NCBI RefSeq assembly: GCF_001017655.1 | Contig: NZ_CP010904.1 | Span: 1,950,001 to 1,982,000, forward strand | Length of the DNA stretch: 32,000 nucleotides | DNA from: Kiritimatiella glycovorans | Lineage (GTDB): Bacteria; Verrucomicrobiota; Kiritimatiellia; Kiritimatiellales; Kiritimatiellaceae | Direction of reading: 5' to 3' | Shown: in pieces, positions 765 through 30,625 of the stretch | Numbering within the stretch: position 1 is the first letter of the stretch | Layout of the letters: each line of letters opens with the position of its first letter | Notes under the pieces: model-generated | Databases searched by the model: none | The model's input: only the letters and a program-made list of their open reading frames with translations | What the model was told of the DNA's origin: nothing | Program-made: the position numbers and the translations under genes

Positions 765-972
765 ATGGGGTGTATGGTCATTGCTTTCACAGGCTTAGAG
801 GGTTAGTGTCGATACCGAAGCGGGCGGTTTTATAATGTCAGGGGGCTGATCCTCGCGATCCGTACGACCGCGGTTCGCGTCGGGATCTGTCGGCATCGTC
901 TGCGGCTGCAAAACCGGCATGGGACATGGATCACGAAGGACCGCACAGCGACCCGAAACGGAGACGTACACG

Positions 973-7495: not shown

Positions 7496-7512
7496 AATAA
7501 AAAAGGACGCGG

Positions 7513-8997
7513 CTATGCGGCTTTTCTGCGCTTCCAGAGGGTCAGGGCGACAAAGAACGCAGCCAGCAGGAGCAGGGTCAGGGCGATCGGGCGCCCGCCG
7601 AAAAAGGCGTAGCTCCCCTCCCCCAGCACCAGCGCGCGGCGCAGGTTGGTCTCGGCCATGCCTCCCAGAATCAGCGCCAGCAGGAACGGGGCGGCGGGAA
7701 ATCCCGTTTTGCGCATCCCGACGCCCAGGACGCCGAATCCGAGCGCGACCCAGCAATCGACCGGATTGGCGCGCAGGGCGTAGGCCCCCATAAGCGAGAG
7801 CAGCAGGATGCCGGCGTTCAGGAAACGGCGATCGATTTTGAGCGCGCCCATGACCAGCCGCGCGGTCGAGAGGGCGGTCACGAACACGGCCAGGTGGGCG
7901 AAGAGCATGATGGCCAGGATAGAATACGCCAGCGGACCGTGATCCTGGAACAGCAGCGGGCCGGGCTGGATGCCGTGCAGAATAAAGGCCCCGATCAGCA
8001 CGGCGGTCACCGAGTCGCCCGGAATGCCCAGCGAGAGCAGCGGGATCATGGCCCCGGAGGTGGCGGCGGTCTTGCCCGATTCCGCCGCGGCGATCCCCTT
8101 CGGCTCGCCGTCCCCGTAGCGGTCGTCCGGCTTGGACTGCTGATTCGCCGCGCTGTAACAGAGAAAGGCCGCGATATCCGCCCCGGCCCCGGGCGTGCTG
8201 CCCGTAAAGGTCCCGATCAGCGAGGCCTTGAGGTTCATCCATCCGCAGCGCTTCATGTCGCGCCCGTGCGGCAGCTCGAAGAGTTTCATCTTCTTTCCGG
8301 CCGGAAGTTGCGGTGCGCCGCGGTCCGGAGAAAAGACCTCGGCTATCGCAAAAAGCCCGATCAGTACCGGGATGAACGGCATGCCCTCCATCAGGCTGAC
8401 ACTTCCGAACAGGAAGCGCGGGTAGCCGGAGACGGGGTCCATGCCCACCGTCGCGCAGAGCAGTCCCGCCAGGGTGGCGATGGCCCCCTTGAGCAGTGAT
8501 TCGCCCGAGAGCGCGGTGATCAGCGAGAGCCCCAGCACGGCCAGCGCGAAGAACTCGGCCGGTCCGAAACTGAGCGCGAAGCGCGAGATCTGCGGCGTGA
8601 GGAAGATCAGCAGCAGCGTCCCGATCACCCCGCCGATCAGCGCCGACCAGGCGGACAGCGCCAGCGCCCGGCCGGCCTCGCCGCGCTGCATCATGGGATA
8701 GCCGTCCATCAGCGTGGCCGCCGAGGCGGGCGTCCCGGGGGTGCGGAAGAGGATCGCGGGCACGGTCCCGCCGTAGATCGCGCCGCAGTAGATGCCCACC
8801 AGCAGCGCGATGGCCGGCATGATGTCGAGTTCGAACGTGAACGGCACCAGCAGCGCGACCCCCATCGTGGCGGAGAGCCCCGGCACCGCGCCGACCAGCA
8901 TCCCGGAGACGACTCCCGCCAGCAGACAGATCCATACGGCGGGCACGAGCATCAGATCGAGCGAGCCTGTCATGATCTCCATCATCAGCCTATCCAT
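7513..8997 (-). CDS. tctA: Tripartite tricarboxylate transporter (TTT) large permease TctA
   Basis: 494-aa polytopic membrane protein with typical TctA N-terminus (..GVVSGMLVGAVPGLSATMGVALLVPFTF..). The start may be the ATG at 8985, which overlaps the tctB stop as TGATG. Confidence 0.9.
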   Translation of the reverse strand: MDRLMMEIMTGSLDLMLVPAVWICLLAGVVSGMLVGAVPGLSATMGVALLVPFTFELDIMPAIALLVGIYCGAIYGGTVPAILFRTPGTPASAATLMDGYPMMQRGEAGRALALSAWSALIGGVIGTLLLIFLTPQISRFALSFGPAEFFALAVLGLSLITALSGESLLKGAIATLAGLLCATVGMDPVSGYPRFLFGSVSLMEGMPFIPVLIGLFAIAEVFSPDRGAPQLPAGKKMKLFELPHGRDMKRCGWMNLKASLIGTFTGSTPGAGADIAAFLCYSAANQQSKPDDRYGDGEPKGIAAAESGKTAATSGAMIPLLSLGIPGDSVTAVLIGAFILHGIQPGPLLFQDHGPLAYSILAIMLFAHLAVFVTALSTARLVMGALKIDRRFLNAGILLLSLMGAYALRANPVDCWVALGFGVLGVGMRKTGFPAAPFLLALILGGMAETNLRRALVLGEGSYAFFGGRPIALTLLLLAAFFVALTLWKRRKAA

Positions 8998-9440
8998 CCT
9001 TCCGGCAGGGCCACGTTCATCAGGCGTTCGAAGACGGCGTACAGTACAAAGGCGGCGATGAACCCGGCCGCGAGGGCCCGCACGGGGTTACGGTAACCCA
9101 GCACACGCAGCGCGGCCGCGAAGAGCAGCGCAGTCGAACTGATAAACCCCAGCCAGGGCATCAGCACCAGGTACAGCGCCGTCAGTCCGCCCAGCAGCGG
9201 GAGGCGCCGCCCGTCCCCCGCCTCCTCCGCCGCGCCGGACTCCGGCGGATTCCTCAGCGTCCCGATCAGTCCGCCCAGCGCCAGCGCCGCGAGCAGCACG
9301 CCCAGAAAGAGCGGGAAGCTGCCCGGTCCCGAATGGGCGTCCTCCGGACGCGGAAAGGTCAGCGAGAGCCCGACGGTTCCGGCCCCGATGATCAACACGA
9401 CGAGATACGCCATACGTTCAATCGTCGTTCGCCGCTTCAT
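8985..9440 (-). CDS. tctB: TTT small membrane subunit TctB
   Basis: 151-aa protein with 4 TM segments between tctC and tctA. Its start overlaps the tctC stop and its stop overlaps the tctA start, which is the canonical tctCBA arrangement. Confidence 0.8.
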   Translation of the reverse strand: MKRRTTIERMAYLVVLIIGAGTVGLSLTFPRPEDAHSGPGSFPLFLGVLLAALALGGLIGTLRNPPESGAAEEAGDGRRLPLLGGLTALYLVLMPWLGFISSTALLFAAALRVLGYRNPVRALAAGFIAAFVLYAVFERLMNVALPEGWIG

Positions 9441-10429
9441 TCCACCAGCCCCAGTTTACGCATGGTCCGGGCCACCTCTTCGGACTGGCGTTCCGCGAGG
9501 GCCCGGAAGTCCTCGTGACCCGCGACATGCAGATTCATGCCCGACTGCGCGGCGAAGGTCTCGAACGCGTCGGATTCGGCGACCGCGCGAAACGTCCCGG
9601 CGAGCACGGCGCGCCGGTCGGGCGGCACGCCCTCGGGCAGCGCCAGCCCGCGCCAGGTGCCGAACACCAGGTCGTAGCCCTGCTCGCGGCAGGTGGGCGT
9701 GTCCGGGAATCCCTCCAGCCGCCCGTCGCTCATGACCCCCAGCAGCCGGACCTGGCCGGACTCCACGTAAGTCTTCAATTCGGCGGGACTGACGGTGACC
9801 GCATCGATATGCCCGCCGATGAGTGAGGTGATGGCCTGGGAGGCACCGTTGAACGGGACGTGCACCGCCGGCATGTCCGTGCGATCGGCCAGCATCGCGG
9901 CCGCGAGGTGCCACACCGCGCCCGCCCCGGAGTTCCCGATACTCGGCGGCTCGCCCGTCTTCGCCCCGCGCACGAATTCCTCCAGCGTCTGCGCCGGATG
10001 ATCGCTGCGCACCGCCACTGCGGCGGGGTCCATGTTCAGCAGCATCAGCAGATCGAAGTCCTCATGGGTAAACGGCGCGAGCCCCTGCACCGGGAGGGAG
10101 ATCAGCTCGAACGTGGTCATCAGCACCGTGTAGCCGTCCACGGGCGCCACCCGACCGGCGGCGTGACCGATCGCCCCGCCCCCGCCGGTCAGGTTGCTCA
10201 CCAGCACCGGCACGCCGAGCCGCTTCTCCGCCTCGTGCGCCAGCTTGCGCGAGAGCAGGTCCGTGCCGCCGCCGGGCGAAAACGGACAGATCAGGGTCAC
10301 CGGCCGTTGCGGAAAGCTCCCGCCCGCCGCGCGACGCTGCCAGTTCATCCACGCCAGCGCGACGATCGCGATAACGATCACCGCCCAGGCCCACGCATTT
10401 TTGCGATCAAACATCGTTCCCGTGCTCAC
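9437..10429 (-). CDS. tctC: TTT periplasmic substrate-binding protein TctC (Bug family)
   Basis: Signal/anchor segment, then FPQRPVTLICPFSPGGGTDLLSRKLA...VSNLTGGGGAIG...DGYTVLM, the Bug/TctC signature. The start is GTG at 10429; an alternative ATG is at 10414. Confidence 0.9.
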   Translation of the reverse strand: MSTGTMFDRKNAWAWAVIVIAIVALAWMNWQRRAAGGSFPQRPVTLICPFSPGGGTDLLSRKLAHEAEKRLGVPVLVSNLTGGGGAIGHAAGRVAPVDGYTVLMTTFELISLPVQGLAPFTHEDFDLLMLLNMDPAAVAVRSDHPAQTLEEFVRGAKTGEPPSIGNSGAGAVWHLAAAMLADRTDMPAVHVPFNGASQAITSLIGGHIDAVTVSPAELKTYVESGQVRLLGVMSDGRLEGFPDTPTCREQGYDLVFGTWRGLALPEGVPPDRRAVLAGTFRAVAESDAFETFAAQSGMNLHVAGHEDFRALAERQSEEVARTMRKLGLVE

Positions 10430-10647: not shown

Positions 10648-12810
10648 TCACGGCTCCAGCGCCGCGCGGCCCACGGTGTCCGTCGCCCCGGTGTAGCCGG
10701 GGCCGCCGCCGGCGAGGTAGCCGTCGCTGCGGCCGGAACGGTCCCGGCTGACCCAGAACGCGTAGAGTGAGCCGTCGGTCAGCTCGAATTGGAAGCGGAC
10801 GGGTGTGTCGGCCAGTTCCGAGAGATCGGCGCCGCCCTTCCATCTGACCGCCGCGAGCGTGCTGTCGACGGAGAGCGGTTTGCAGTTCTCGAGGGTGAAC
10901 GGGGGGATCGGCTCGCCGTTCTCGTCGAGCACGGCGGCGCGCAGGCGACCGCCGGGCGCATCGACATTCACGAAGAGGCGTTTGCCGGAAAAGGTGACCG
11001 GGCGGGTGGTCAGTGTGCCGGGATCCGCCCCGGCGTCCATTGAGGCGAACCCGTCGCGGCGCAAAACGGCGAGACCGGTCGCGCTGTTATCGTAAGTACC
11101 CATCCTATTGCCCGGTTTTCCCCGGTAACCGGTGTAGTAGAAAAAGAGCTTGTCGCCCATGATCGTACACACATTCCCCAGCGACTGCACATACCCGCGG
11201 GCCCAGGCATCGTGGCGTTCGGCGGGGATATGGACTCGGCGGTCCGGGCGGTGGAAGTGGAAGCCGTCGCGGCTGTAGGCGAACTGCAGCTCGGTGATCT
11301 TCGGCAGGCCCGCTTTGTGGCAGATCTCGTTCGGCGGCCCCCAGTGGAGCTGGAACTGGCCGAGCATGATGCTCTCGTAGGCCACCGCGTCGAAGTTGTA
11401 GAGCTGGGCGGGACGTCCGGTGAGGTAATCCACCTTTACGCCCCGATCCTCGTCGAGCATGTCGCCGTCGTTCTCGTCGGCGGTCAACCACGGGACTTCC
11501 TCTGCGTCCGTCCGCTGTGCGCCCGCGACGAAGTCGTCGCATTCGTAGTATTTGCGTGCGCGGCCGCGTCCGGGAAATCCGGCGCGGATGCTGTAGACCC
11601 ATTTTTGGCGGAAGGGATTATAGAAGTGGGTGCTGCGATCGCCCGCCGTGCCGGATTCGGTCCGCCGGTCCCAGTGGATGCCGTCCGCCGAGGTCAGACA
11701 GAATCCGGGTTGCGGCTTGCCGGGCGGCTGGATGAAGAGCGTCCATTTCTCCGCCGGTCGCGCAGCGTCCCAGTTGCGAACCACCGTCCAGGAGTCCGGG
11801 GTAATTCCTTCGGGATGAACGAGATTACCCTGCTCGGGCCACACATCATAGTTCGGACGTTCCCAGTGAATCCCGTCGCGGCTGGTCACTAGGGCGATCG
11901 GCCCGAACCACGAGGTCTCGTACCAGAGTTTGAAGTGCCCGGCGTCCGGATCCCACCAGCACCCGCCGCTCTTCGGGACCGCCCCGGCGTTGCCGTGTCC
12001 GGACGGTTTGGAGTGCCCCTCCGGCTCGACCTCGCCCCGCTCGACCGGCGTCTCGGGCTTGAGCACCGGGTTGCCCGCGTATTTCTCGGGCCGGTGGAAG
12101 GTCCGTTCGAGCGAGGTCTCCGCGATCAGGAAGTCGTCGATAAAGAGCTGGCGGCCGACGTCGATCGGGATGACCTCCGGCGGATGGTCGAGGTACGGCA
12201 CCGGCATCGGGCTGGTGTCCGAAGGATCGATATTCCGCGGCGGCCATTCCTCGGGCAGCCGGATGCCGTTGTAGAGCCGTTCGCCGGTATTTGCGCTCCA
12301 GGGTTTCTCTTCGTATTGAATGGCCTCCCCGAGCCCCACCGCCACGACAAACTTGTTGAATACGAATCGCTCCCCCGTGCGGACCTGTTTGCGGTAGGCG
12401 GCCACCCGGTTCCACGCCTCGTCGCCGAACAACTGAAACGAGGCGGAGTCGGGCACCCGCTCGAACCCGGCCGCTTCCAGCGCCTCGGCCTGCGATCCGT
12501 ATTTGGCACCGGGCACCGGCGTCAACACCGTCAGCGACCCCGGATCCAGCACGAGCCAGTCCTCCGGCTGAGCGATGCCGTTGCGCAGGAACGGCAGGCC
12601 GTGCAGGTCCTCCGGCACCTGGTCGGTGAGCGTGTAGCCGCGGTCGGTGAAGAGTTTGACGCCCGGTTCGAAGCGGGCGACCTCGCCCTTCCCGCGGAAT
12701 TGAAGCGAAGCGCCGGAATCGGCGTATGCGGGAGAGGCAAAGATAACTGAGCCGATCAGGATCAGGCAGGCTGCGACTGGAGCTCTCTTAATTTTGGTCA
12801 TTTCTTCCAT
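10648..12810 (-). CDS. Secreted glycoside hydrolase-like protein: signal peptide, novel about 125-aa N-terminal domain, beta-propeller core (GH43/32/68-clan-like), C-terminal beta-sandwich
   Basis: Signal peptide MEEMTKIKRAPVAACLILIGSVIFASPAYA. Repeated blade motifs are SRDGIHWERP, SADGIHWDRR and SRDGFHFHRP. The C-terminal region (RRDGFASMDA...GTLTTRPVTFSGKRLFVNVDA...VLDENGEPIPPF) resembles the GH32-type C-terminal sandwich. I could not assign a family from sequence alone. Confidence 0.75.
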   Translation of the reverse strand: MEEMTKIKRAPVAACLILIGSVIFASPAYADSGASLQFRGKGEVARFEPGVKLFTDRGYTLTDQVPEDLHGLPFLRNGIAQPEDWLVLDPGSLTVLTPVPGAKYGSQAEALEAAGFERVPDSASFQLFGDEAWNRVAAYRKQVRTGERFVFNKFVVAVGLGEAIQYEEKPWSANTGERLYNGIRLPEEWPPRNIDPSDTSPMPVPYLDHPPEVIPIDVGRQLFIDDFLIAETSLERTFHRPEKYAGNPVLKPETPVERGEVEPEGHSKPSGHGNAGAVPKSGGCWWDPDAGHFKLWYETSWFGPIALVTSRDGIHWERPNYDVWPEQGNLVHPEGITPDSWTVVRNWDAARPAEKWTLFIQPPGKPQPGFCLTSADGIHWDRRTESGTAGDRSTHFYNPFRQKWVYSIRAGFPGRGRARKYYECDDFVAGAQRTDAEEVPWLTADENDGDMLDEDRGVKVDYLTGRPAQLYNFDAVAYESIMLGQFQLHWGPPNEICHKAGLPKITELQFAYSRDGFHFHRPDRRVHIPAERHDAWARGYVQSLGNVCTIMGDKLFFYYTGYRGKPGNRMGTYDNSATGLAVLRRDGFASMDAGADPGTLTTRPVTFSGKRLFVNVDAPGGRLRAAVLDENGEPIPPFTLENCKPLSVDSTLAAVRWKGGADLSELADTPVRFQFELTDGSLYAFWVSRDRSGRSDGYLAGGGPGYTGATDTVGRAALEP

Positions 12811-12813
12811 TGA

Positions 12814-13716
12814 TCAACGCGGATCGATGCATCCCGTTCCCTCGAGGTGCTTCAGACTGTGCCTCATATTTTCGACAACCTGCTCCTCCGACGCGGATCC
12901 GGAGTTGAGTTCCATGGCGGCATACACGGGTTCCGCGCGGTCGCCCAAAAGATCGGCGATTTTTTCAAACGACAGCGGATTGCCGTCGAGGACCGGCAGG
13001 GCCTCGCCGTCGCGGGCGGACTTGAGGTGCAGATACGAAATCCGGTCGGCATAGCGCCGGATGAACGCGGCGGCCTCTTCCGGCGAGGCGGGATGATCGC
13101 CGGTGAACAGGTTGCCGGTATCGAGCTGCAGTTCGACCGCGGGATCCAGTTCGTCCAGCAGCCGACGCATCCCGATGACGCCGTCCGCGCTTCCTTCGAG
13201 CACGACGTCGGCATTCTCGATCATCAGCCGGCGTCCCTTCGCCTGCGCCTTTTCCGCGGCCCAGCGCGCAGAAGCCAGCACCTGTTCAAACTCCGCCCGG
13301 CTCCAGCCGGTGTCGCCTTCCCCGAGCAGCGCCAGTACCCGCATCCGGCTGGGCCCCTCGAAGCAGGCGGCGTTGACCAGCGCCCGTTCGAACACCGGTT
13401 TGAAGTCTTCGGCCAGCAGACCGCGCTGCATGGAATACAGGACCTCCAGCCCCCGCTCGCGGGCGTCGGCGGCAATCCGTTCGCAGTCGGCCTTCGACAG
13501 CGTTGCGTCCGGGTCGCGCAACTCGATCCACGACAACTCGAGTTCGCGCGCTATATCCAGCTGCCGGCGGGCGGTCTCGACCGAAACCGACACCGTCGGG
13601 ATGAAGTTCTGGGTCGTATAGCCGATCTTCATTTCGGACTCCGTGGGTGAAAAATTCGAAACACATCCCGCGCCGAACAGGACCGCGAACGCGACGCCCG
13701 TCGCAAACATCCTCAT
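12814..13716 (-). CDS. Sugar phosphate isomerase/epimerase family protein (xylose isomerase-like TIM barrel)
   Basis: Family-like pattern is present (ELSWIELRD..., RRLMIENAD, LQLDTGNLF, ISYLHLKSA). The start is ambiguous. ATG at 13716 overlaps the kdgK stop (ATGA) and adds a signal-like segment. ATG at 13632 has a GGAG SD and gives the usual MKIGY.. N-terminus. Confidence 0.8.
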   Translation of the reverse strand: MRMFATGVAFAVLFGAGCVSNFSPTESEMKIGYTTQNFIPTVSVSVETARRQLDIARELELSWIELRDPDATLSKADCERIAADARERGLEVLYSMQRGLLAEDFKPVFERALVNAACFEGPSRMRVLALLGEGDTGWSRAEFEQVLASARWAAEKAQAKGRRLMIENADVVLEGSADGVIGMRRLLDELDPAVELQLDTGNLFTGDHPASPEEAAAFIRRYADRISYLHLKSARDGEALPVLDGNPLSFEKIADLLGDRAEPVYAAMELNSGSASEEQVVENMRHSLKHLEGTGCIDPR

Positions 13717-14804
13717 CGCACCACCCTCCCCGACCCGCTGCCGCGCATCAGCGCCTCGACCTCCGCGCGACGGCTGTGATTCCAGTCGCCCTTGATCGAG
13801 TGGGCCAGGCAGGAGGCGGCCACGGCAAAGGCGATGGCGTCGGCATGCTCAGTATATTCCCCGCTGTGGAGCGCGAAGATCAGTCCGGCCGCGAAGGAAT
13901 CGCCGCCGCCGACGCGGTCGACGATGTTGCGGATTTCATAGGGGCGGTATTCCCCGTCCCTCATCGGCGCGAACACCGCCTGTTCGCTTTCGGTGTCGTA
14001 GAGCATCGCGCCCCAGTTGTTGTGGCTGGCGGAGATGCTCTCGCGCAGGGTAATCGCGACCTTGCGCACGTTCGGGAACTGCCCGGCGATTTGACCGGCC
14101 ACCTCGGGATACTTGTCGATCGCCAGTTCCCCCGACTCGACGTCCGAGTCCCCGGCGCGAATGCCGAGCACGTCCTCGGCATCACCCTCGTTGCCGATCA
14201 CCACATCCACAAACGGAAGGATGTCGCGCATCGTCCGCCCGGCCAGCTCACGCGGCGACAGGGTTTCGTCCCATTTCCAGAGTTTTTTGCGGAAGTTGAG
14301 ATCGCACGAAACCGTCAGTCCGGCCTCCTTCGCCCCGCGCACGGCGGCGAGCGACGCCTCGGCCGCGCAGCGCGAGAGCGCCGGCGTGATGCCGGAAATG
14401 TGCAGCCAGCCGGCGTCCGCGAAAATCGCGTCCCAGTCATAGGCGTCGGCGGGGGTCCGCGACACCGCCGAGTGTTCGCGGTCGTAGATCACGTTGCTCG
14501 GCCGCTGATTGGCGCCGGTCTCGACGAAGTACAGTCCGAGACGGCCGGAGTCCGTTCGCACGATGTGCCGGGTTTCGACGTCCAGCGCCTTCAGCGAGCG
14601 GACGCAGGCGTCGGCGATCGCGTGGTCCGGCAGGGCGGTGACGTAAGCGGACGATCCGCCCAGCATGGCGATCGACGCTGCCACGTTGGCCTCCGCGCCC
14701 GCAAACGTAAGGTCCAGCCGGCCCGGGCAGCTCTGGCTGAAGCGGTAGAATCCCTCCGGGGCCAACCGCCCCATTATCTCTCCGAATCCGACAACCGGCT
14801 TCAT
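13713..14804 (-). CDS. kdgK: 2-dehydro-3-deoxygluconokinase (PfkB family)
   Basis: From the ATG at 14804 (MKPVVGFGEIMGRLAPEG...), preceded by aaaggaaag. The PfkB C-terminal motif DRVGGGDSFAAGLI is present. The longer ORF to 14948 would overlap eda and add a basic, non-homologous extension. Confidence 0.85.
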   Translation of the reverse strand: MKPVVGFGEIMGRLAPEGFYRFSQSCPGRLDLTFAGAEANVAASIAMLGGSSAYVTALPDHAIADACVRSLKALDVETRHIVRTDSGRLGLYFVETGANQRPSNVIYDREHSAVSRTPADAYDWDAIFADAGWLHISGITPALSRCAAEASLAAVRGAKEAGLTVSCDLNFRKKLWKWDETLSPRELAGRTMRDILPFVDVVIGNEGDAEDVLGIRAGDSDVESGELAIDKYPEVAGQIAGQFPNVRKVAITLRESISASHNNWGAMLYDTESEQAVFAPMRDGEYRPYEIRNIVDRVGGGDSFAAGLIFALHSGEYTEHADAIAFAVAASCLAHSIKGDWNHSRRAEVEALMRGSGSGRVVR

Positions 14805-14889
14805 GCTTCTGCTTTCCTTTCTGTTGTGCGTCATCTTTTGCATCTCCGGCAGGGCGTGTTCTCCGAATGCGGCGCCTTTCCTTTTTCGC

Positions 14890-15519
14890 TCAGGCCACGG
14901 CCGCCGCGGCGGCGGCCCGTTTCCCGATCTCCTCCCAGCGGTGTTCACGGATCAGGTCGCGCGGGGCGATCCACGATCCCCCGACCGCGCAGATCAGGGG
15001 GCTTTCCAGCCAGCCCGGCAGGTTGTCCTGGTTGAGCCCGCCCAGCGGGATGAACTGCAGGTCGAGGTGCTTGTACGGTCCGGCGGCCGATTTGAGATAC
15101 TTGAGTCCGCCGCAGGGTTCGGCCGGAAAGAACTTCAGCGTGCGGCACCCCAGCTCCACGGCCGCCTCAATCTCCGACGGGGTCATGACGCCCGGCGCGA
15201 ACGGGAGTTCCGCCGAGGCCGCTTCTTCCATGACGTCGCGGTTGAGTCCGGGAGCGACGGCAAAGGCCGCCCCCGCATCCCCGACCCGGCGCACCTGCTC
15301 CCGCGTAAGTACCGTACCCGCCCCCACCAGGATCTCAGGAACGCGTTCACGAATCACGGACATCGCCTCGAGCGCGGCCGGCGTGCGCAGCGTCAGCTCC
15401 ATCGCCCCCACCCCGCCCTCGAGCAGCGTCTCCGCCAGAGGGACCGCATCCGTCGCCTCGTCGATCACCAGCACCGCGATAATCCGCTGCCCGGCCAGCA
15501 GCTCCCTGAACCGATCCAT
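14890..15519 (-). CDS. eda: 2-dehydro-3-deoxyphosphogluconate (KDPG) aldolase
   Basis: 209 aa, MDRFRELLAGQRIIAVLVIDEATDAVPLAETLLEGGVGAMELTLRTPAALEAM... and ...TLKFFPAEPCGG..., the standard Eda pattern. SD aagggggg lies upstream. Confidence 0.9.
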   Translation of the reverse strand: MDRFRELLAGQRIIAVLVIDEATDAVPLAETLLEGGVGAMELTLRTPAALEAMSVIRERVPEILVGAGTVLTREQVRRVGDAGAAFAVAPGLNRDVMEEAASAELPFAPGVMTPSEIEAAVELGCRTLKFFPAEPCGGLKYLKSAAGPYKHLDLQFIPLGGLNQDNLPGWLESPLICAVGGSWIAPRDLIREHRWEEIGKRAAAAAAVA

Positions 15520-16183: not shown

Positions 16184-17911
16184 TCATTCAGCCGCGAACA
16201 GCGGCACGGCCCATTTTCCGAATTCGATCACCTCTCCGGCCGCGCATGTCTTCTGGTACAGCGAGCACAGGTTGGCGGGATAGGACGTGTGCTCGAAGAG
16301 GTTGAATTCGGACAGCGCGACTTTCTCGAAGCCCTGGGCTTCGAGCTTCGCCGACTGGCTTCCGCTCGGATTGCGGTCGGGCAAAGGCGTGGCGAAATAG
16401 ACCACCCCCGCCCGGGAAACGGTCACCGATTTATCGCCGTCGATCGGCACCTGCAGGAAGCGGGCTCCCTTGAGCGCCTCGGGACATTCGGACAGCGCGT
16501 AGCCGCGGTCCGTGAAGAGCTTCGCGCCCGGATCGAACGCGAGTACCTGCACTTCGCCCGCGGCGAACGCGCCGACGGGTGAGCGGCGCAGCGCCGCTCC
16601 GTCGGCGTTGTCGCGCGGCGGGTTTTCGTCCCGCTTCCACTGCGGCGTCGCCTCCCGGGCGCCCTGATGGCGCGGGTTGCGGGCCAGCCCCTTGTCGATC
16701 ACCTGCCGGAAGAGGGCCTTTCCGGAAACCGGCTCGCCGGCCGCGACGTCCTGCTCGGTGAAGGCCGCCATCAGGATTTCTTTCGCGTGGTGGCGCTCGC
16801 GGTCGTAGATCACGTAGATCGTGCCGTCGTCGGCCTGCGTGGCGTCCGGGTAGGAAACATGGGAGCGCTCGTCGATCATCAGGCCGCCGGTCCAGCTCTC
16901 TCCGTCGTCGTCGGACAGGAAGGCCATCAGGCGCTCGCGCCGCCCGGTTTTCTCGCCGGGTTCTCCGTGCTTGACGAGCAGCAGCTTACCGGACTGCAGA
17001 CGGCCGATGTAGAAGCGGGCGACGGTGTGCTCGATGTCGGAGGGCTCCATCGGGGTCCAGGTCTTTCCCTGGTCGCGGGAAAAGCTCTCGCCGATGCCGT
17101 AGTTCATGCGGCTGAGCAGCCACAGCGAACCGTCCTCGCGCTGCACCACCTGGTTCTCGTCGCAGTTACGCCCCTCGGGCATCGGCACATGGCCGCGGAA
17201 CTCGAAGGTCCTGCCCTTGTCGGTGGAAAACAGCGGCCGGAACGGCAGCCGTCCACCGCCCTCGGCACGGGTCAGCGTACCCACCGGCCAGACCCAGGTG
17301 CCGTCGGAGAGCACGGTCGGCTTGTTCATGTGGCCGTAGTCGGTGGCGATAAGCTGCGGCGAATCCCACTCCGGCGACGGGTCGCCGGGGTTATCGGTGG
17401 TGATCGCCCACAGCTGCATGCCGCGGCACTGGTTCTCGAGCACAAAGGTCCGGTAGGAACGGATATCGTCGAAGCGCTTTTTCATATCCGCGGCGTTATC
17501 AGTCGTATAGCGGATCGGCCAGATGCTGAAGGTGAACCACATGCGGTCGTCCGGATCCATCCAGAGCCCGGCATAGGAGGCCCGGAACGGCGGATCGATG
17601 ACCATCTGCGGATCGGACCACGTGCGGCCGCCGTCGCCGCTGGTGGCCAGCATCACGATATTGCTCCAGCCCTCGCCGGTGTCGCCCGAGTCCCACGTCG
17701 CCCACAGGCGTCCGTTGGGGGCGGCGCTGATCCCGAACGAGCAGACGAACATGCGGTTTTCCGCATCGTACTCCGGACCGGGATCGGTGACGACATAGGG
17801 CATATGCGGCCAGCGCGGGGCCTGCTCCGGGTCGCTGTAGTCGGCGGCCGGCAGCGACAGTGCGGACAGCAGGACGGTCAGGGCGGTCAGTTTTTTTATC
17901 GTCTTTTTCAT
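16184..17911 (-). CDS. Secreted BNR/Asp-box (sialidase-superfamily, GH33-like) beta-propeller protein with a C-terminal about 125-aa domain shared with the GH at 10648-12810
   Basis: Start at ATG 17911 (MKKTIKKLTALTVLLSALSLPA signal peptide; SD caggaga). There are four Asp-boxes: SGDGGRTWS, STDKGRTFE, SRDQGKTWT, SDDDGESWT. I did not see a FRIP motif, so true sialidase activity is not established. Confidence 0.85.
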   Translation of the reverse strand: MKKTIKKLTALTVLLSALSLPAADYSDPEQAPRWPHMPYVVTDPGPEYDAENRMFVCSFGISAAPNGRLWATWDSGDTGEGWSNIVMLATSGDGGRTWSDPQMVIDPPFRASYAGLWMDPDDRMWFTFSIWPIRYTTDNAADMKKRFDDIRSYRTFVLENQCRGMQLWAITTDNPGDPSPEWDSPQLIATDYGHMNKPTVLSDGTWVWPVGTLTRAEGGGRLPFRPLFSTDKGRTFEFRGHVPMPEGRNCDENQVVQREDGSLWLLSRMNYGIGESFSRDQGKTWTPMEPSDIEHTVARFYIGRLQSGKLLLVKHGEPGEKTGRRERLMAFLSDDDGESWTGGLMIDERSHVSYPDATQADDGTIYVIYDRERHHAKEILMAAFTEQDVAAGEPVSGKALFRQVIDKGLARNPRHQGAREATPQWKRDENPPRDNADGAALRRSPVGAFAAGEVQVLAFDPGAKLFTDRGYALSECPEALKGARFLQVPIDGDKSVTVSRAGVVYFATPLPDRNPSGSQSAKLEAQGFEKVALSEFNLFEHTSYPANLCSLYQKTCAAGEVIEFGKWAVPLFAAE

Positions 17912-17931
17912 GGCATCTCCTGTTTGCGGGA

Positions 17932-18639
17932 TCACATGATCCCGTACGTATCGAAGGCCTCACGGGCGCCCATTCCGCCCCGGATGGCCTTCAGCACGGT
18001 CTTTTCGCCGCGGGCCTTTTCGATCGCCCGGACGAACACCTCGGTTTCGATCTCGCGGGGAACGACGCAGACACCGTCCATATCCCCGAAGACGATATCG
18101 CCGTCCGCCACGCGCACGCCCTCGATCTCCAGCGGGACGCGGAAATCGAGGACCTTGCCGCGCGGGGCCTGGTCCTGGGCGTAGCGCCCGTAGGAGAAGC
18201 AGGGGAAGTCCTGCGCCAGGATACCGCGCGTATCGCGCGAATAGCCGTTTACGACCGCGCCGGTCGCCCCGCGCTGAATCGCGCACGCGCTCATCAGCTC
18301 GCCCCACAGGGCGTACGACGGCGATGCACCGCTGCAGACATAGACCTCGTTCGGGCGCAGGTCGTCGAGCGCCTCGAGCATCAGGCCGAACGGTCGTCCG
18401 AGCAGCGGGTTGCGCTCCGCGGGTTCCGCGATCGGCGGCACATCCGCCTCCAGCACCGGCATCGCCCTCCCGACGGCCACCATATCCTTCCGCAGCGGTT
18501 TGATCCGCGGCGGCAGGAACTGGTGCAGCAGCCCCATCTTATCCATGATATCGCCTACCACGGCGGTGTACAGCTCCCCGCGCGCGAGCGCGAACAGCTC
18601 CTCGTCATCGTTCCACATCATCGAATCACCCTTCCTCAT
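17932..18639 (-). CDS. RraA family protein (class II 4-hydroxy-2-oxoacid aldolase / oxaloacetate decarboxylase-like)
   Basis: 235 aa with an RraA/HMG-aldolase-like core (..VYVCSGASPSYALWGELMSACAIQRGATGAVVNGYSRD.. and ..GDIVFGDMDGVCVVP..). The start overlaps the transporter stop (ATGA); an alternative ATG at 18621 has a ggaaggg SD. Confidence 0.8.
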   Translation of the reverse strand: MRKGDSMMWNDDEELFALARGELYTAVVGDIMDKMGLLHQFLPPRIKPLRKDMVAVGRAMPVLEADVPPIAEPAERNPLLGRPFGLMLEALDDLRPNEVYVCSGASPSYALWGELMSACAIQRGATGAVVNGYSRDTRGILAQDFPCFSYGRYAQDQAPRGKVLDFRVPLEIEGVRVADGDIVFGDMDGVCVVPREIETEVFVRAIEKARGEKTVLKAIRGGMGAREAFDTYGIM

Positions 18640-19895
18640 GACGCGATCAGTTCCATCAGCGCGACCACGGCGTTTCTCGACATGACCAGCGCGAAGATCA
18701 GGGCGGTCCCCATGCCGGCGTTCAGCCAGAACCCGGCCCTGCGCTCGCCCATGATCGACCGCTTGTTACAGAGCACGATAAAGAGCGCGACCACCAGTGG
18801 GAGGATGAACACCTGCGAGACCTGCGTGGCGATCTGGGCTGCGATCGGATTGGCGCCCAGCACCGGCACGACCAGGCCCAGCACACAGGCCACCGCGGTC
18901 AGGATGCGGAACAGCTTCGACTTGCTGTCGAACACCCCGTTGCGGTAGTCGCTGATCAGCAGCGGGGCGACCATCGCGGCCGGGAATACGGACGAGAGCC
19001 CGGCGCTGAGCGTCCCGACCAGGAACAGCGCCACGGCGTAGCGCCCCGCCACCGGTTCCAGACTCTGCACCATGTCCAGCACATGGTGGATCTCCATGCC
19101 CCGGCGGTGCAGGGCCCCGGCCGCGCAGGCCATCACCGAACCGCTGACCACGAACATCAGCGCCGCGCCGCTGAAGGCATCGATCGACTGGCGGCGGTGA
19201 TCCTCCGCCCCCCACCCCTTGGCCTTGAGCAGCAGCGGGCGGACGACGAAGGTCGGTGCCGCCATGGTCGTGCCCACAAACGCGGCGATCATCAGCGTCG
19301 CGCCGGGCACGTCCGGCACCGTCGGCACAAACCCGCGAACCACCTCGCCGGCCGGCGGGAAGACGATGAACATGGAGACGATAAAGGAGAGTCCCAGGAT
19401 GGTGACGAAGAAGATCAGCACCTTCTCGAAGAAGGAGTAGCCGCCGTGCCAGAGCAGGGCGTACATGGTCGCCATCACGACCGCCGCGATGCCCAGTACG
19501 GGCCAGTAGGCGTTTTCGGGCAGCGAAGGGATGAAGAGCCGCAACGCCTCGTAGACCGCGCTGGAGGAGAGGCCGACCAGGCCGGAGAGACAGCACCACT
19601 GGCCGACGACGACCCCGATCACCACCAGGACGGCCAGGACGTTTCCGGCCGGCATGTGCCGCCGGCAGCCGTGGACCGCCGTATCCCCCGAACACAGCGC
19701 GAAGCGCCCGGAAGCCTCGAGCAGGATCCACGAGAAGAAACAGCTGAGGGCCAGCACCCACAAAAGCTGCATGCCGAACTGACTGCCGGCCTTGCTCATC
19801 GAGGTCACGCTGCCGGTGCCGACGGTATAGCCGATGGCGAACAGCCCCGGCCCGATGCCCGCCAGTGTGCCCAGGATTTTTCGGGTAAGGTTCAT
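18636..19895 (-). CDS. NRAMP-fold (LeuT-fold) transporter lacking the canonical DPGN metal-binding motif
   Basis: 419 aa with about 11 TM segments. The N-terminus GIGPGLFAIGYTVGTGSVTSMSKAGSQFGMQLLWV aligns with the MntH segment GPG....GYIDPGN.......G..FGY.LLW, but has VGTG in place of DPGN. Both its start and its stop overlap neighbouring genes as ATGA. Confidence 0.8.
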   Translation of the reverse strand: MNLTRKILGTLAGIGPGLFAIGYTVGTGSVTSMSKAGSQFGMQLLWVLALSCFFSWILLEASGRFALCSGDTAVHGCRRHMPAGNVLAVLVVIGVVVGQWCCLSGLVGLSSSAVYEALRLFIPSLPENAYWPVLGIAAVVMATMYALLWHGGYSFFEKVLIFFVTILGLSFIVSMFIVFPPAGEVVRGFVPTVPDVPGATLMIAAFVGTTMAAPTFVVRPLLLKAKGWGAEDHRRQSIDAFSGAALMFVVSGSVMACAAGALHRRGMEIHHVLDMVQSLEPVAGRYAVALFLVGTLSAGLSSVFPAAMVAPLLISDYRNGVFDSKSKLFRILTAVACVLGLVVPVLGANPIAAQIATQVSQVFILPLVVALFIVLCNKRSIMGERRAGFWLNAGMGTALIFALVMSRNAVVALMELIAS

Positions 19896-20998
19896 GACCG
19901 GCTCCTCGTTTCAGCTTTAGCGATATCGTACCGTCGCGCTTCGTCGAGCATCACAAAATACGAGTCCGGCGGGATGTAGGCGGTGACCCAGTTTCCCGCT
20001 CCGAGAAAATAGCCGCCGCCGGGATGGCAGGCGTCGAGGACCGTCCGGGTGCGCGCGCGGATGGCCTCTTCGCTGCCGCGCGCGAGCAGATCGACATCGA
20101 TCCCGCCCAGCAGCGTCAGGCGGTCGCCGTAGCGCGCCTTCACCTGCTCCACCGGCACGATGTTGTCCTCGAACGAGTGCTTGGCGTCGATGCCCACGTC
20201 GTCGATATAATCGTCCATCAACTCGTACATGTCTCCGCACGCGTGAAGGAAGAACAGCTTCCCCTTTTCGTGTGCCAGCGCCGCCAGCCGCCGGTGCCAC
20301 GGCAGCAGGTAGCGGCGCAGCGAGCCGGGATCGATCATCAGGCCGGACTTGTACCCCATGTCGTCGGCGATGTAGAGCGCGCCGAACGAATCGAAATCGC
20401 ACAGGCAGGAGGCCACCGACACCACGAACGAACCGACCTTTTCAAACACCGCCCCGACCAGCTCCGGGTTTTCGTAGAGCGCGAAGCAGAGCGACTCGAA
20501 TCCGAACAGATCGCGGACCACCTCCCACAGGTCGAGCACGTGGAACGCGCGCATGTCGTCGGGTCTGATCCCGTCCAGCTTTTCGAGCACGGCGTAATCC
20601 GCGTCCCCCGGATCCGGCCAGGGAAACGACTCGAATTCCTCCCAGGTGGTGATCGCCCCCTTTCCCTCCTGCGACCACTCGCCCTCCAGCTTCGGGGCCG
20701 TCATGCGCGCATTTTCCGGAAAGACCCGGAACAGCTCGTGACCCAGGTGGCGATGGACCGCCAGCCTTCGCTCGAGGTCCTGATCCGGATCGTCCGGCGA
20801 CCCTCCCTCCCACAACCCCAGCCGCCCGGCGATCTCCGCCATGACATGATCGGCGATGCCGTGTTCGAAATAGTGGACGCGGTCGGGCGTACCCTCCCGT
20901 CGTACGGTCCGCATAAAACCGTCCCAGTCCGGGGTCACCGCCGGAAGGCGGACTCCCGTGTTCGCTCCTGTACCCATACTGAAAACCTGTCCCGTCAA
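19892..20998 (-). CDS. Uroporphyrinogen decarboxylase (URO-D) family protein of unknown function
   Basis: 368 aa with URO-D/MtaA-like TIM-barrel features (..YIADDMGYKSGLMI.., ..LFFLHACGDMYELMDDYIDDVGIDAKHSFED..). The start is TTG at 20998 or ATG at 20977. Confidence 0.8.
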   Translation of the reverse strand: MTGQVFSMGTGANTGVRLPAVTPDWDGFMRTVRREGTPDRVHYFEHGIADHVMAEIAGRLGLWEGGSPDDPDQDLERRLAVHRHLGHELFRVFPENARMTAPKLEGEWSQEGKGAITTWEEFESFPWPDPGDADYAVLEKLDGIRPDDMRAFHVLDLWEVVRDLFGFESLCFALYENPELVGAVFEKVGSFVVSVASCLCDFDSFGALYIADDMGYKSGLMIDPGSLRRYLLPWHRRLAALAHEKGKLFFLHACGDMYELMDDYIDDVGIDAKHSFEDNIVPVEQVKARYGDRLTLLGGIDVDLLARGSEEAIRARTRTVLDACHPGGGYFLGAGNWVTAYIPPDSYFVMLDEARRYDIAKAETRSRS

Positions 20999-21113: not shown

Positions 21114-21926
21114 GTGGTTCGTTATTGTATATATCGACCCCCGATGAACACGGAGCACTATTTTAAATCGGTCACCCGACTGCGCATCGCGCTGGAGGAG
21201 TTCGCGGCGGGCGAGATCATGCGCAGCGCGGCGTTAAAGAAGAAGGCCGCCGGGGCACTGAGCGCCCTGACGACCGATTTCAGACGCGCCCTGAAGGCGG
21301 AGGATTACGAGGCCTTCAATCGAACGGACTACCGGCTCCACCACACGCTGGTCGAACTCCCCGGCCTTCCGGTGCTGGTGGAGAACTGGGAGGCGGTATG
21401 GGAAGTCCACGCCGGGCTGCACCGCGACCGGCTCCGCGAGTACTGGCCGAATCTGCGGATCCTGGTGGAGGAGCAGGAATACCTGATCGAAGTCCTCTGC
21501 TCGTTTGATCCCGTAGCCATCCAGGACGCCATCCATAATCATCTGGAATCACTCTGGTTCCGTATTTACGAAGGCTATGCCGCTCCGCCGGCCGAACCCG
21601 AGAATCCGCTGCCGCGCGTACGGTCCTATCTCTCCTACCACCTGCACCGTCCGCTGGATCTCCGGGAGATCGCGCGCAACGTGGCCTTTACGAGCCCGGG
21701 ACACCTCTCCCGTCTGATGCGGCAGCAGTGCGGGGCGGGATTCAAGGACTACGTGCGCAATCTCCGCATGGAGAAAGGCGAGGAACTGCTGCGGCGAACC
21801 CGACTGCCCGTCAGGCAGATCGCCCGGAGGACCGGCTACCCCTCCGCCTCCCGCTTCTGCGAGTATTTCAAGCGCACGTACGGGATGACGCCGACGGCCT
21901 ACCGCAGGAAGCACCCCGACGCATGA
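21114..21926 (+). CDS. Transcriptional regulator: FCD-like (FadR C-terminal domain-like) sensor domain fused to a C-terminal AraC/XylS HTH
   Basis: The C-terminus RPLDLREIARNVAFTSPGHLSRLMRQQCGAGFKDYVRNLRMEKGEELLRRTRLPVRQIARRTGYPSASRFCEYFKRTYGMTPTAYRR is a canonical AraC double HTH. The N-terminal about 140 aa shows the FCD pattern (D..LHHTLVEL.G...L...W.....H.......EH..L...L...D...A......HL). The start is GTG at 21114 or ATG at 21144. It is divergent from the URO-D operon. Confidence 0.8.
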   Translation: MVRYCIYRPPMNTEHYFKSVTRLRIALEEFAAGEIMRSAALKKKAAGALSALTTDFRRALKAEDYEAFNRTDYRLHHTLVELPGLPVLVENWEAVWEVHAGLHRDRLREYWPNLRILVEEQEYLIEVLCSFDPVAIQDAIHNHLESLWFRIYEGYAAPPAEPENPLPRVRSYLSYHLHRPLDLREIARNVAFTSPGHLSRLMRQQCGAGFKDYVRNLRMEKGEELLRRTRLPVRQIARRTGYPSASRFCEYFKRTYGMTPTAYRRKHPDA

Positions 21927-23519: not shown

Positions 23520-25241
23520 TCAATATCCCTTCTTATGCAGGGGTTTGGTAACGCGCAGCATTTCATCCAGCGAGGTCTCGCCGCGGCGGACGAGTTCCCA
23601 GGCGCTGTTCCAGAGGGTGATCATACCCTGTTCGATCGCGCGCTCCATGATCTCGCCGCTCGAGAGGCGGCGGGAGATCAGCGAGCGCAGATCGTCGGTG
23701 AGCACCATAATCTCGAAGACCGCGCGACGGCCGCGGTAGCCGGTGAAGCGGCAGTACGGGCAGCCGGGTGCCTGACGGCAGTTCGCGTCGTCGATCCCCT
23801 CCAGACCGGATTCCCTCAGATCCTGTTTGACGCCCGCGGGCAGCTCGCACTCCACGGCGCAGCGCGGGCACAGGCTGCGCACGAGGCGCTGGGCGATGAC
23901 CCCCTGCAGTCCTGAAGCCACGAGATAGGGTTCGATACCCATCTCGATCATCCGCGTCACCGCCCCGCCGGTATCGTTGGTGTGCAGGGTACTGAACACG
24001 AGGTGTCCGGTCAGGGCCGCACTGACGGCGATCTCCGCAGTCTCGGTGTCGCGGATTTCGCCGATGAGAACCACATCCGGATCATGGCGGAGGATGGATC
24101 GCAATCCGCTGGCGAAGGTAAATCCTATGCCGCCGTTGACCTGGAGCTGGGAGATCCCCGGGATCCGGTATTCCACGGGGTCCTCGAGCGTGATGATTTT
24201 GCGTTCGTTATTATTGAGATGGTCGAGTGCCGCGTAGAGGCTGGTGGTCTTCCCGCTTCCCGTGGGGCCGGTGAACAGGATCACGCCGTGCGGCTGGGCG
24301 AGCATATCGTCGACCCAGCTCCGCTGTCGTTCCGAAAGCCCCAGTTCGTCCAGGTTGATAAACCGGGACTGGCGGTTGAGGATGCGCAGGTTGACCGTCT
24401 CCCCTTCGGTGGCGGGCAGCACCGAGACGCGGACGTCGATATTCTGATCGTCGAGATCGAAGCTGAACCGTCCGTCCTGGGGCAATCTTTTTTCGGCGAT
24501 ATTGAGCTGCGCCATGACCTTGACGCTGGACATCAGCGCACGGGCGTGTTTGTTCAGCCCCCGCGGCGTGGGCACCGTATAGAGCACGCCGTCGATCCGG
24601 TACCGCAGGCGGAACCCGTCCTCCTCGGGCTCGAGGTGCAGGTCCGTCGCACCGCAGCGGATCGCGTCGTGCAGGATTTCACGCACGAGGGCGGGCATGT
24701 CTCCTTCCGCGTCGCTCCGAGACCTGCGTCCGGATCCTCCCTCCATCCGCAGGTAGGTGGCGATTCCGACCCCGTAGTAGTGCTTGATAAACTCCGAGAG
24801 TTCCTCCGACGTGCAGAAGACCCAGCGCAGCGAGTAGCCGAGCAGCACGCGGAGGTGTTCCTCCTCCGCCGCCGAGCGGACGCGGTCGGTCGCCAGCACC
24901 AGGACGCCGCGTTCCAGCGATACGGGCATGACGCGAAAATTGACGACGGCCTTAGGCGGAACCTGATCGACGATTTCCGGCGGGATCTCGTGGTCCGCGG
25001 ACGCCAGCACCGGGATGCCGGTCAATTCCGAGAGGATCTCGAGCAGTTCGCTCTCGGCGAGGACCCCGTCTCTCAGGATCTGCCGGTCCAGCGGCTGTTT
25101 AAGCCACGCCGCGCGGTCGCGGTATTCCTTAAGGCGCGCCTCACTGATTGTGCCGCGGCGGACGAGCGCTTCCCCCAGCCGCTCCTGGAGGTCGGAGCGG
25201 GCGGAAGGGCCGGCGGATGAGGATGTCGACCGCTTGCTCAT
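23520..25241 (-). CDS. Type IV pilus / type II secretion assembly ATPase (GspE/PilB family)
   Basis: 573 aa. It has an N-terminal T2SSE_N-like domain, Walker A FTGPTGSGKTT, Asp/His boxes (..ITLEDPVEY.., ..ILRHDPDVVLIGEIRD.., ..TGHLVFSTLHTND..) and the tetracysteine motif CPRC...CPYC. Confidence 0.9.
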   Translation of the reverse strand: MSKRSTSSSAGPSARSDLQERLGEALVRRGTISEARLKEYRDRAAWLKQPLDRQILRDGVLAESELLEILSELTGIPVLASADHEIPPEIVDQVPPKAVVNFRVMPVSLERGVLVLATDRVRSAAEEEHLRVLLGYSLRWVFCTSEELSEFIKHYYGVGIATYLRMEGGSGRRSRSDAEGDMPALVREILHDAIRCGATDLHLEPEEDGFRLRYRIDGVLYTVPTPRGLNKHARALMSSVKVMAQLNIAEKRLPQDGRFSFDLDDQNIDVRVSVLPATEGETVNLRILNRQSRFINLDELGLSERQRSWVDDMLAQPHGVILFTGPTGSGKTTSLYAALDHLNNNERKIITLEDPVEYRIPGISQLQVNGGIGFTFASGLRSILRHDPDVVLIGEIRDTETAEIAVSAALTGHLVFSTLHTNDTGGAVTRMIEMGIEPYLVASGLQGVIAQRLVRSLCPRCAVECELPAGVKQDLRESGLEGIDDANCRQAPGCPYCRFTGYRGRRAVFEIMVLTDDLRSLISRRLSSGEIMERAIEQGMITLWNSAWELVRRGETSLDEMLRVTKPLHKKGY

Positions 25242-25246
25242 GACCG

Positions 25247-28373: not shown

Positions 28374-28384
28374 ACTGGACCGGG

Positions 28385-30538: not shown

Positions 30539-30625
30539 CAAGGAATCCTCCCTTTTGGATCTGCGGCCCGAGGTGCATATGGGAGACACCATCGCCGATT
30601 TCAGCGATTTTTTCAATACCGGGGT

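Follow-up and report, generated by a model that had tools for sequence, protein, structure and literature searches.

Two secreted glycosidase-type proteins encoded in the 32,000-nucleotide stretch of Kiritimatiella glycovorans DNA herewith analysed (referred to as the window) have in common a real homologous, independently folding domain of about 115 residues, hereafter the module. It represents a domain family missing from the libraries searched, Pfam, NCBIfam and PDB, its novelty being judged against these three. One of the hosts, P0001 (16184-17935, minus strand), is a BNR_2 protein with a sialidase-like six-bladed propeller, and the other, P0002 (10648-12810, minus strand), is predicted to carry a five-bladed propeller. 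As to its role, we lean towards the interpretation that the module is a non-catalytic carbohydrate-binding module (CBM) of an undescribed family, through which both enzymes would be kept on one and the same glycan, possibly an acidic one.

Identification of the module

The sequence-only reading of the window had proposed that a domain of about 125 residues is shared between the C-terminus of P0001 and the N-terminus of P0002. Formal pairwise alignment of the full proteins by BLASTP with compositional adjustment bore this out: residues 460-583 of P0001 aligned with residues 40-162 of P0002, with 49 identities in 126 columns (39%; 68.2 bits, E=4e-16), and no further significant segment was found between the two whole proteins, the remaining ones giving E>=0.96. 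The proposed boundaries also hold, as 16187-16570 corresponds to P0001 residues 456-583 and 12315-12710 to P0002 residues from about 34 to 165. Copy 1 (16187..16570, minus strand) makes up the C-terminal 128 residues of P0001 and is covered by a profile match at 16196-16555 (E=2.5e-52). Copy 2 (12334..12687, minus strand; P0002 residues 42-159 approximately, by local hmmsearch; profile E=2.8e-36) lies directly past the signal peptide, about 6 residues ahead of the catalytic core. By the profile search, the whole genome of Kiritimatiella glycovorans (G000) carries four copies with E-values from 2.5e-52 to 5.4e-32, and the two outside the window (2514753-2515100 and 1558802-1559134) are both located at the N-terminus of P0002 paralogues.

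The virtually negligible alternative that this similarity is a chance or compositional effect of high G+C coding sequence is refuted by the composition-adjusted BLASTP value between the window copies (E=4e-16), by the profile E-values, which range from 1e-32 to 1e-52 over the four copies in the genome, and by hundreds of homologues in other phyla, together with a confident AlphaFold2 model. The core motifs read from the two sequences beforehand (LFTDRGY, GSQ..LEA.GFE.V, F.LF and GE...F.K) were all found, and most of their residues proved to be conserved throughout the family. Using 291 non-redundant copies, and with the numbering of module residues starting at GEVQVLAF..., the conserved positions include the aromatic and charged residues F15, D17, R18, Y20, F76, K101 (92%), E107, K113 and W114. 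From this conservation pattern we infer that F15, D17, R18, Y20, K101, E107 and W114 may form a binding site.

Distribution and domain architecture

A profile search against 1.84 billion representative proteins identified the module in 485 clusters at 50% identity, 286 of them at E<=1e-10, which belong mostly to Planctomycetota, Verrucomicrobiota, Lentisphaerota and Kiritimatiellia. A genome-collection scan with a narrower BNR-type alignment, which is biased towards BNR hosts, gave a distribution largely within these groups; the scan with a single window sequence gave no confirmed match. Within the window's own phylum, the module was detected in only 6 of 151 sampled genomes. The module is found mainly with BNR_2 propellers and with the P0002 core, BNR_2 being present in 43 of 61 mid-sized and in all 19 giant module proteins, and the rarer partners include GDSL and SASA esterases, sulfatases, F5/8-C (a known CBM type), SLH and dockerin.

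The prediction that the module shuffles between termini and between catalytic partners was verified, as it occurs in N-terminal, C-terminal, internal and tandem positions as well as alone. Of the BNR hosts, 96 carry it on the C-terminal side, 34 on the N-terminal side, 8 on both sides and 3 internally, and most of them end with the module and its conserved terminal motif GKWAVPxFF. All 114 hosts with the P0002 core have it at the N-terminus. Arrays contain up to 10 copies per protein, with giant proteins of 2000-3700 aa, and stand-alone copies (P0123, P0134, P0155 and P0210) are proteins of 164-173 aa with signal-peptide-like N-termini. The closest relatives of the P0002 core (121 proteins, 57-74% identical) carry one copy in 102 cases, two copies in 2 and none in 17, indicating that the module is optional.

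Tree analysis showed that the copies group by partner family, with only 4 switches between BNR and core hosts on 194 leaves, and thus the shuffling is old and not local. We also rejected that the two window copies stem from a recent duplication in this genome, because they are only 39% identical, as compared with 50-75% identity between the P0001 copy and BNR-type copies elsewhere, and because of the same clustering by partner family.

Predicted fold

The excised module (122 residues) was modelled by AlphaFold2 as a mostly beta structure at high confidence (pLDDT 92.9, pTM 0.87), which, together with the stand-alone copies, indicates that the module folds by itself. In the model of full-length P0002, the stretch of copy 2 likewise shows pLDDT 91-95.

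The module could not be placed in a known family by the sequence-only reading, and this agrees with the library searches: neither window copy gave a match at E<=10 in Pfam (0 matches), NCBIfam gave no match over the module, the PDB profile search with the module returned noise only (E=0.32), and no recent CBM family resembling it was found in the literature. By fold as well, no named CBM appeared among the similar structures. After Foldseek search with the module model, the sole PDB entries above TM 0.6 were parts of the chains of 6hpd, a GH2 beta-glucuronidase (probability 1.00, TMq 0.67), and 6hzf, a GH138 enzyme (BP0997, rhamnogalacturonan II; probability 0.99, TMq 0.64), with about 130-140 aligned columns at an identity of only 13%. 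These parts of the two enzymes have a fold like that of the module, but without a sequence relationship by profile search. Among viral structures there was one weak match only, to a cyanophage tail-fibre-like protein (TM 0.59). In contrast, the CBM35/CBM6 entries 2w47, 2w1w, 4qb1 and 2cdo gave TMq of 0.13-0.26 in PDB, and no solved CBM superposed on the module at TM >0.5, the match to CBM32, CBM35, CBM6 or the like staying below 0.3 in every case.

Genes surrounding the two host proteins

Directly downstream of P0002, on the same minus strand, lies a tripartite carboxylate transporter, TctCBA (7513..10429), consisting of TctC (9437-10429; Pfam E=3.8e-40), TctA (7513-8997; Pfam E=1.4e-141) and a TctB-sized ORF taken from the ORF list (8985-9440), which is a candidate TctB by position and size. 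Upstream of P0002, also on the same strand (12814..15519), are the genes for a xylose-isomerase-like TIM barrel (12814-13716; Pfam E=2.2e-12), a PfkB sugar kinase of KDG type (13713-14948; Pfam E=1.2e-28) and a KDPG/KHG aldolase (14890-15519; Pfam E=1.9e-64). Pfam assignments upstream of P0001 on the minus strand are an RraA-like aldolase (17932-18639), an Nramp-family transporter (18636-19895) and a URO-D-like protein (19892-20998), followed by a divergent AraC/FCD regulator on the plus strand (21114-21926). Since P0001 and P0002 are clustered with the carboxylate transporter and the KDG/KDPG-type genes, they probably have a common glycan substrate, which may be acidic. The enzymes of 6hpd and 6hzf presumably both act on uronic-acid-containing glycans, as we take from the entry titles and the GH138 activity, and this would fit the carboxylate-uptake and KDG/KDPG genes of the locus. 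At the loci of the P0002 paralogues, genes for a SASA esterase, a GH127-like protein and a pectate-lyase-like protein were found. The G+C content of the window is about 64%.

Possible role in carbohydrate binding

The CBM interpretation is suggested by the homology, the self-folding, the optional and mobile nature of the module and its carbohydrate-active partners, by the finding that the sole similar folds belong to glycan-processing or glycan-recognising proteins, and by the locus context together with the conserved aromatic and charged residues. The module is a contiguous stretch with a discrete fold within carbohydrate-active enzymes, which is the structural part of the generic CAZy description of a CBM, as judged from the model, the stand-alone and tandem copies and the host domains. 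Like the CBMs of CAZymes, such as CBM32/F5_F8_type_C and CBM40 on sialidases, it is discrete, mostly beta, optional, variable in position and often tandem, and linkers attach it to secreted domains of glycoside-hydrolase, esterase and sulfatase type, but it differs from them in matching neither any Pfam CBM model nor any PDB chain. Fused behind a signal peptide to either type of propeller, the module would tether the enzyme to its polysaccharide substrate and thereby raise the local substrate concentration, and larger relatives, with their 2-10 copies in tandem, would gain avidity. In Kiritimatiella glycovorans, one BNR_2 (sialidase-like) enzyme and three GH32/43/130-like paralogues would be equipped in this way.

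The same architecture could mean that the module is an ancillary structural domain, which packs on the propeller, where it would shape or cover the active site or add to the stability of the enzyme without being an independent tether, in the manner of the additional beta-sandwich domains found in enzymes of GH32, GH43 and GH2. A very short and constant junction joins the module to the P0002 core, measuring only about 6-12 residues in over 100 relatives, and together with the high pTM of the full-length P0002 model (0.88) it might point to a structural partner fixed to the propeller and not to a free tether; the best fold matches, 6hpd and 6hzf, are domains inside multi-domain glycosidases, and the copies co-evolve with the partner family. 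We nevertheless consider this unlikely, because 17 of the 121 close core relatives do without the module, about 50 low-complexity residues part it from the P0001 propeller, and it is found on either side of BNR_2, in arrays, alone and joined to such unrelated folds as sulfatases and GDSL or SASA esterases. The conserved charged residues D17, R18, K101, E107 and K113 and the secreted stand-alone copies might also be expected if the module itself had a minor catalytic or regulatory activity (for example as esterase, lyase or sensor) or were an inhibitory pro-domain, but this is highly improbable for a mostly beta domain of about 115 residues that resembles no enzyme in sequence or fold, and arrays of up to 10 copies are unusual for an enzyme.

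The sequence-only reading had left the choice between carbohydrate binding and cell-surface anchoring, of which the anchoring part turned out to be the less likely, as the module of large multi-domain proteins sits beside dedicated anchors (SLH, dockerin) and known CBMs (F5/8-C). A function in protein-protein or cell-envelope attachment, such as surface anchoring or complex assembly in the manner of cohesin-dockerin or an adhesin repeat, would agree with the tandem arrays in adhesin-like giant proteins, with a distribution largely bounded by phyla of unusual envelopes (Planctomycetota, Verrucomicrobiota, Lentisphaerota and Kiritimatiellia), and with the GKWAVPxFF ending at the extreme C-terminus of most BNR hosts. 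It is quite unlikely, however, given that dedicated anchors (SLH, dockerin) accompany the module in the same proteins, that its N-terminal, internal and tandem placement is unlike a sorting signal, that its presence in 6 of 151 genomes of its own phylum is a poor fit to a general envelope feature, and that its partners are almost all carbohydrate-active. The module itself is no member of the SLH or dockerin families, as it has no Pfam match and these occur as separate domains. A C-terminal sorting or secretion domain of the T9SS-CTD type was rejected on the basis of the N-terminal position in all 114 core hosts and 34 BNR hosts and of the internal and array copies.

A further extension of the CBM interpretation, which we put forward only tentatively, is that the module founds a CBM family for a specific acidic (uronic- or ulosonic-acid-bearing) polysaccharide, and marks two large uncharacterised hydrolase families, the PVC-type BNR_2 enzymes and the core family with its >5700 members, as belonging to one undescribed degradation pathway. 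Planctomycetota, Verrucomicrobiota, Lentisphaerota and Kiritimatiellia are known as degraders of complex marine and soil polysaccharides. The substrate of an unknown glycosidase is usually found by way of its accessory binding modules, since these can be screened on glycan arrays in isolated form. The ligand of the module, once identified, would indicate what the two enzyme families, both abundant and uncharacterised, act upon, and likewise the esterases and sulfatases that occur with them; a CBM family of unusual fold would probably be gained as well. A module without sugar binding would still be a well-defined domain family absent from the annotation libraries searched.

The host proteins P0001 and P0002

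Both hosts were described from the sequence as secreted and glycosidase-like, in good agreement with their signal-peptide-like N-termini, the BNR_2 domain of P0001 and the predicted GH32/43/130-like fold of P0002. In P0002 (720 aa), the signal peptide and the module are followed by a five-bladed propeller and, at the C-terminal end, a beta-sandwich (together residues from about 165 to 720), as modelled by AlphaFold2 at full length with pLDDT 89.3. More than 5756 homologues were found at E<=1e-10. No significant Pfam family was detected for P0002, including the models of GH32, GH43 and GH130; the sole NCBIfam match was to a GH130 model, with E=0.062 and 12.7 bits against a cut-off of 450; and the sequence search of PDB gave nothing with P0002 alone and noise only with a 51-sequence profile. 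After Foldseek search, in contrast, the P0002 model matched GH32 fructofuranosidases, GH130 mannoside phosphorylases and GH43 xylosidases (E about 1e-7, probability 1.00, TMt up to 0.67), and P0002 is thus predicted to have their five-bladed propeller fold without sequence membership. The P0002 core is a separate, uncharacterised large family without a Pfam model and with a predicted GH32/43/130-like fold. The core is fused with BNR_2 in P0269 and P0304 and with SASA in P0230 and P0256, and in several further genomes (L009, L015 and L069) the core and BNR_2 genes lie side by side; the fusion and adjacency of core and BNR_2 fit a shared substrate. Some relatives of P0002 are named 'glycosyl hydrolase family 32' by some sources.

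P0001 residues from about 45 to 400 matched the BNR_2 domain at a Pfam E-value of 4.4e-26 and gave weak matches to GH33 exo-alpha-sialidases in PDB, the best being 7lbu (E=3.3e-9). In comparison with GH33 sialidase/KDNase, DENQVV of P0001 aligns with DENKVV and SYPDA with GYTTA, in partial alignments only, in which a DEN motif and one containing Y fall at the proper positions; the resemblance is sialidase-like by sequence, with PDB E-values of 3e-9 at best and with the propeller covered in part. A literature search on sialidases of Kiritimatiella gave no relevant result. Between the propeller and copy 1 lies a putative linker of about 50 residues (approximately 405-455; 16571..16723, minus strand), which is low in complexity and rich in Arg, Pro, Asp and Asn, as deduced from the end of the BNR_2 and PDB alignments at about residue 406 and the beginning of the module at about 460. 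P0001 is 583 aa long when read from GTG, but 575 aa in the database gene call, which starts with ATG at 17911, likely the true start, and its N-terminus, MKKTIKKLTALTVLLSALSLPA, is signal-peptide-like.

A module shared by two secreted proteins

The two proteins concerned are both encoded on the minus strand: P0001, a secreted BNR_2 propeller protein, by an ORF at 16184-17935 (583 aa from GTG, or 575 aa from ATG at 17911 in the database gene call), and P0002, a secreted protein made of an N-terminal module and a core, by an ORF at 10648-12810 (720 aa). After BLASTP comparison of the full proteins, P0001 residues 460-583 were aligned with P0002 residues 40-162 (49/126 identities, 39%; 68.2 bits; E=4e-16), and no second significant segment was found between the two, all others giving E>=0.96. 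Copy 1 of the module is located at 16187-16570 on the minus strand (P0001 residues 456-583), and the coordinates proposed for the second protein in the sequence-only reading correspond to P0002 residues about 34-165. Since the single BLASTP segment and the coordinates agree, the similarity claimed in that reading is right in place, extent and significance, and the probability that it arose by chance is negligible. In Pfam-A, P0001 matches BNR_2 (E=4.4e-26), and nothing meaningful was found for P0002.

The excised module copies gave zero Pfam matches even at E<=10, in line with the sequence-only reading, which could not place the module in a Pfam family. No NCBIfam match lay over the module, and the profile of A1, an alignment of 19 module sequences, yielded only noise against PDB sequences (E=0.32). 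The module is missing from Pfam (2025 copy), NCBIfam (2026) and PDB (2026), and its novelty is judged against these libraries. The AlphaFold2 modelling and Foldseek search suggested along with the sequence-only reading gave a confident model from A1 (pLDDT 92.9, pTM 0.87) and, among PDB entries, no named CBM reaching TMq 0.3. The model consists mainly of beta strands, and its one helix, a short one, lies at the LEAQGF motif. The predicted fold is uncommon. TMq exceeded 0.6 for only two PDB entries, 6hpd, a GH2 beta-glucuronidase (E=4e-4, TMq 0.67), and 6hzf, the GH138 enzyme BP0997 (probability 0.99, TMq 0.64), a modelled likeness that is only a lead. In the viral library the single match (TMq 0.59) was to a cyanophage protein whose annotation gives a tail-fibre-type chaperone domain.

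Distribution, partners and history of the module

Exhaustive hmmsearch of 1.84 billion representative proteins with A1 identified 485 clusters at E<=1e-3; of these, 286 reach E<=1e-10 and 56 reach E<=1e-30. When species-representative genomes were scanned with the sub-alignment of BNR-type copies, those carried on BNR_2 hosts, 80 loci were detected, nearly all labelled as Planctomycetota, Verrucomicrobiota, Lentisphaerota or Kiritimatiellales (Pontiella, Tichowtungia), together with a few MAGs otherwise labelled; within the phylum of K. glycovorans the distribution is patchy (6/151 sampled high-quality genomes). The best-kept positions among 291 copies non-redundant at 70% (numbering from GEVQVLAF) are G11, F15, D17 (or N), R18, Y20, P26, L29, G31, G51, T57, G75, F76, K101 (92%), G106, E107 (or D) and W114; aromatic and charged residues are well represented among them, as a putative sugar-binding site would require, a pattern that is no more than suggestive.

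Each of the 150 best representatives carries 1-10 modules, the ten copies being in P0071 (2684 aa), and the module also stands alone, in proteins of 164-173 aa whose N-termini look like signal peptides (P0123, P0134, P0155, P0210). According to the Pfam tallies, BNR_2 is present in 43/61 mid-sized and 19/19 giant hosts, and rarer host domains include F5/8-C, GDSL and SASA esterases, sulfatase, SLH, dockerin and Ig-like domains. As had been noticed from the two proteins, the module sits at different termini of different propellers: among BNR hosts, 96 have it C-terminally, 34 N-terminally, 8 on both sides and 3 internally, and all 114 hosts that contain the P0002-type core have it at the N-terminus.

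Search of the 2.95-Mb genome of K. glycovorans detected four copies (profile E-values 2.5e-52 to 5.4e-32), two being those of P0001 and P0002 and the others, at 2514753-2515100 and 1558802-1559134, forming the N-termini of P0002 paralogues. In a FastTree tree of 212 non-redundant copies, built on few columns and with support values that are local only, the copies sort by partner; on 194 leaves 4 BNR/core switches suffice, vs about 40-54 with shuffled labels, and copies on other hosts are dispersed among the BNR-type copies. Module exchange between the partner families is old. The copy of P0001 shares 50-75% identity with BNR-type copies from elsewhere but only 39% with that of P0002, so each copy in the window arrived together with its host gene.

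Possible role of the module

The module is of a familiar type, the accessory module of CAZymes. We lean, by a modest preference, to a new non-catalytic carbohydrate-binding module that would tether the two kinds of enzyme to a single glycan, possibly an acidic one, through putative sugar binding, and its tandem arrays would then provide avidity. The short junction between module and core in P0002-type proteins is in favour of a fixed structural partner of the propeller, which we regard as rather unlikely. An attachment domain for proteins or the cell envelope is slightly less probable still, its patchy distribution and its co-occurrence with SLH and dockerin both speaking against such a role, and a small enzymatic or regulatory domain appears improbable.

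The P0002 core family

The core of P0002 (residues 165-720; 10648-12315, minus strand) represents a very large family for which Pfam has no model. At E<=1e-10 it is matched by more than 5756 proteins, the best 120 being 57-74% identical; in none of the relatives among these matches is a Pfam family precomputed over the core, and the family profile found no match in PDB sequences. Paralogues of the core lie at 2513092-2514752 and about 1559135-1561000 of the same genome. The AlphaFold2 model of P0002 (pLDDT 89.3, pTM 0.88) resembles the five-bladed propellers with C-terminal beta-sandwich of GH32, GH130 and GH43, the core carries many invariant acidic residues, and some sources name its relatives 'GH32'; it may form an undescribed glycoside hydrolase or phosphorylase family. 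One N-terminal module is present in 102 of the 121 closest relatives and two modules in 2, while 17 have none, which shows the module to be an optional addition to an enzyme that is otherwise conserved.

Natural fusions join the core with BNR_2 (P0269, P0304), and in several other genomes (loci L009, L015, L069) a core gene adjoins a BNR-plus-module gene, together indicating a functional link between the two catalytic families. The core is also fused with the sialate-O-acetylesterase-like SASA domain (P0230, P0256), and in K. glycovorans itself a SASA gene adjoins the P0002 paralogue at locus L085 10434-12215. These arrangements suggest a three-enzyme pathway of core, BNR_2 and SASA proteins on one glycan.

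Gene neighbourhood

P0002 lies in a minus-strand run, from 15519 down to 7513, of KDPG aldolase, PfkB kinase, xylose-isomerase-like TIM barrel, P0002, TctC, a TctB-sized ORF and TctA. P0001 ends a second minus-strand run, from 20998 down to 16184, following a URO-D-like gene, an Nramp-family transporter and an RraA-like aldolase, and a divergent AraC/FCD regulator is encoded at 21114-21926 on the plus strand. A carboxylate transporter encoded alongside KDG/KDPG-type enzymes hints that an acidic sugar is released. The P0002 paralogue loci include a SASA esterase, a GH127-like enzyme, a pectate-lyase-like protein and FAD oxidoreductases. The GH127-like protein at L085 (5432-7825) carries at its C-terminus Pfam DUF7402 (133 aa, E=1.8e-42), which is likewise an uncharacterised accessory domain from a locus of this kind and has no sequence relation to the module.

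Two long minus-strand ORFs overlap at 7307-8935 and 7513-8997. The real gene is the 494-aa frame at 7513-8997 (TctA, E=1.4e-141); the 542-aa frame at 7307-8935 has no Pfam match and is probably an artefact of high G+C, and many more long antisense or off-frame ORFs of similar look are found in the window. A minus-strand cluster at 23520-30616 encodes a T2SS/T4P-type ATPase (T2SSE, E=1e-125), a secretin of 743 aa and three ORFs (211, 309 and 522 aa) for which Pfam gives no match. The secreted enzymes may be exported through the products of this cluster, or the cluster may encode a pilus system. A hybrid histidine kinase of 1071 aa, with HisKA, HATPase_c, one receiver and several PAS domains, is encoded at 919-4134 on the plus strand, upstream of the sugar-acid cluster.
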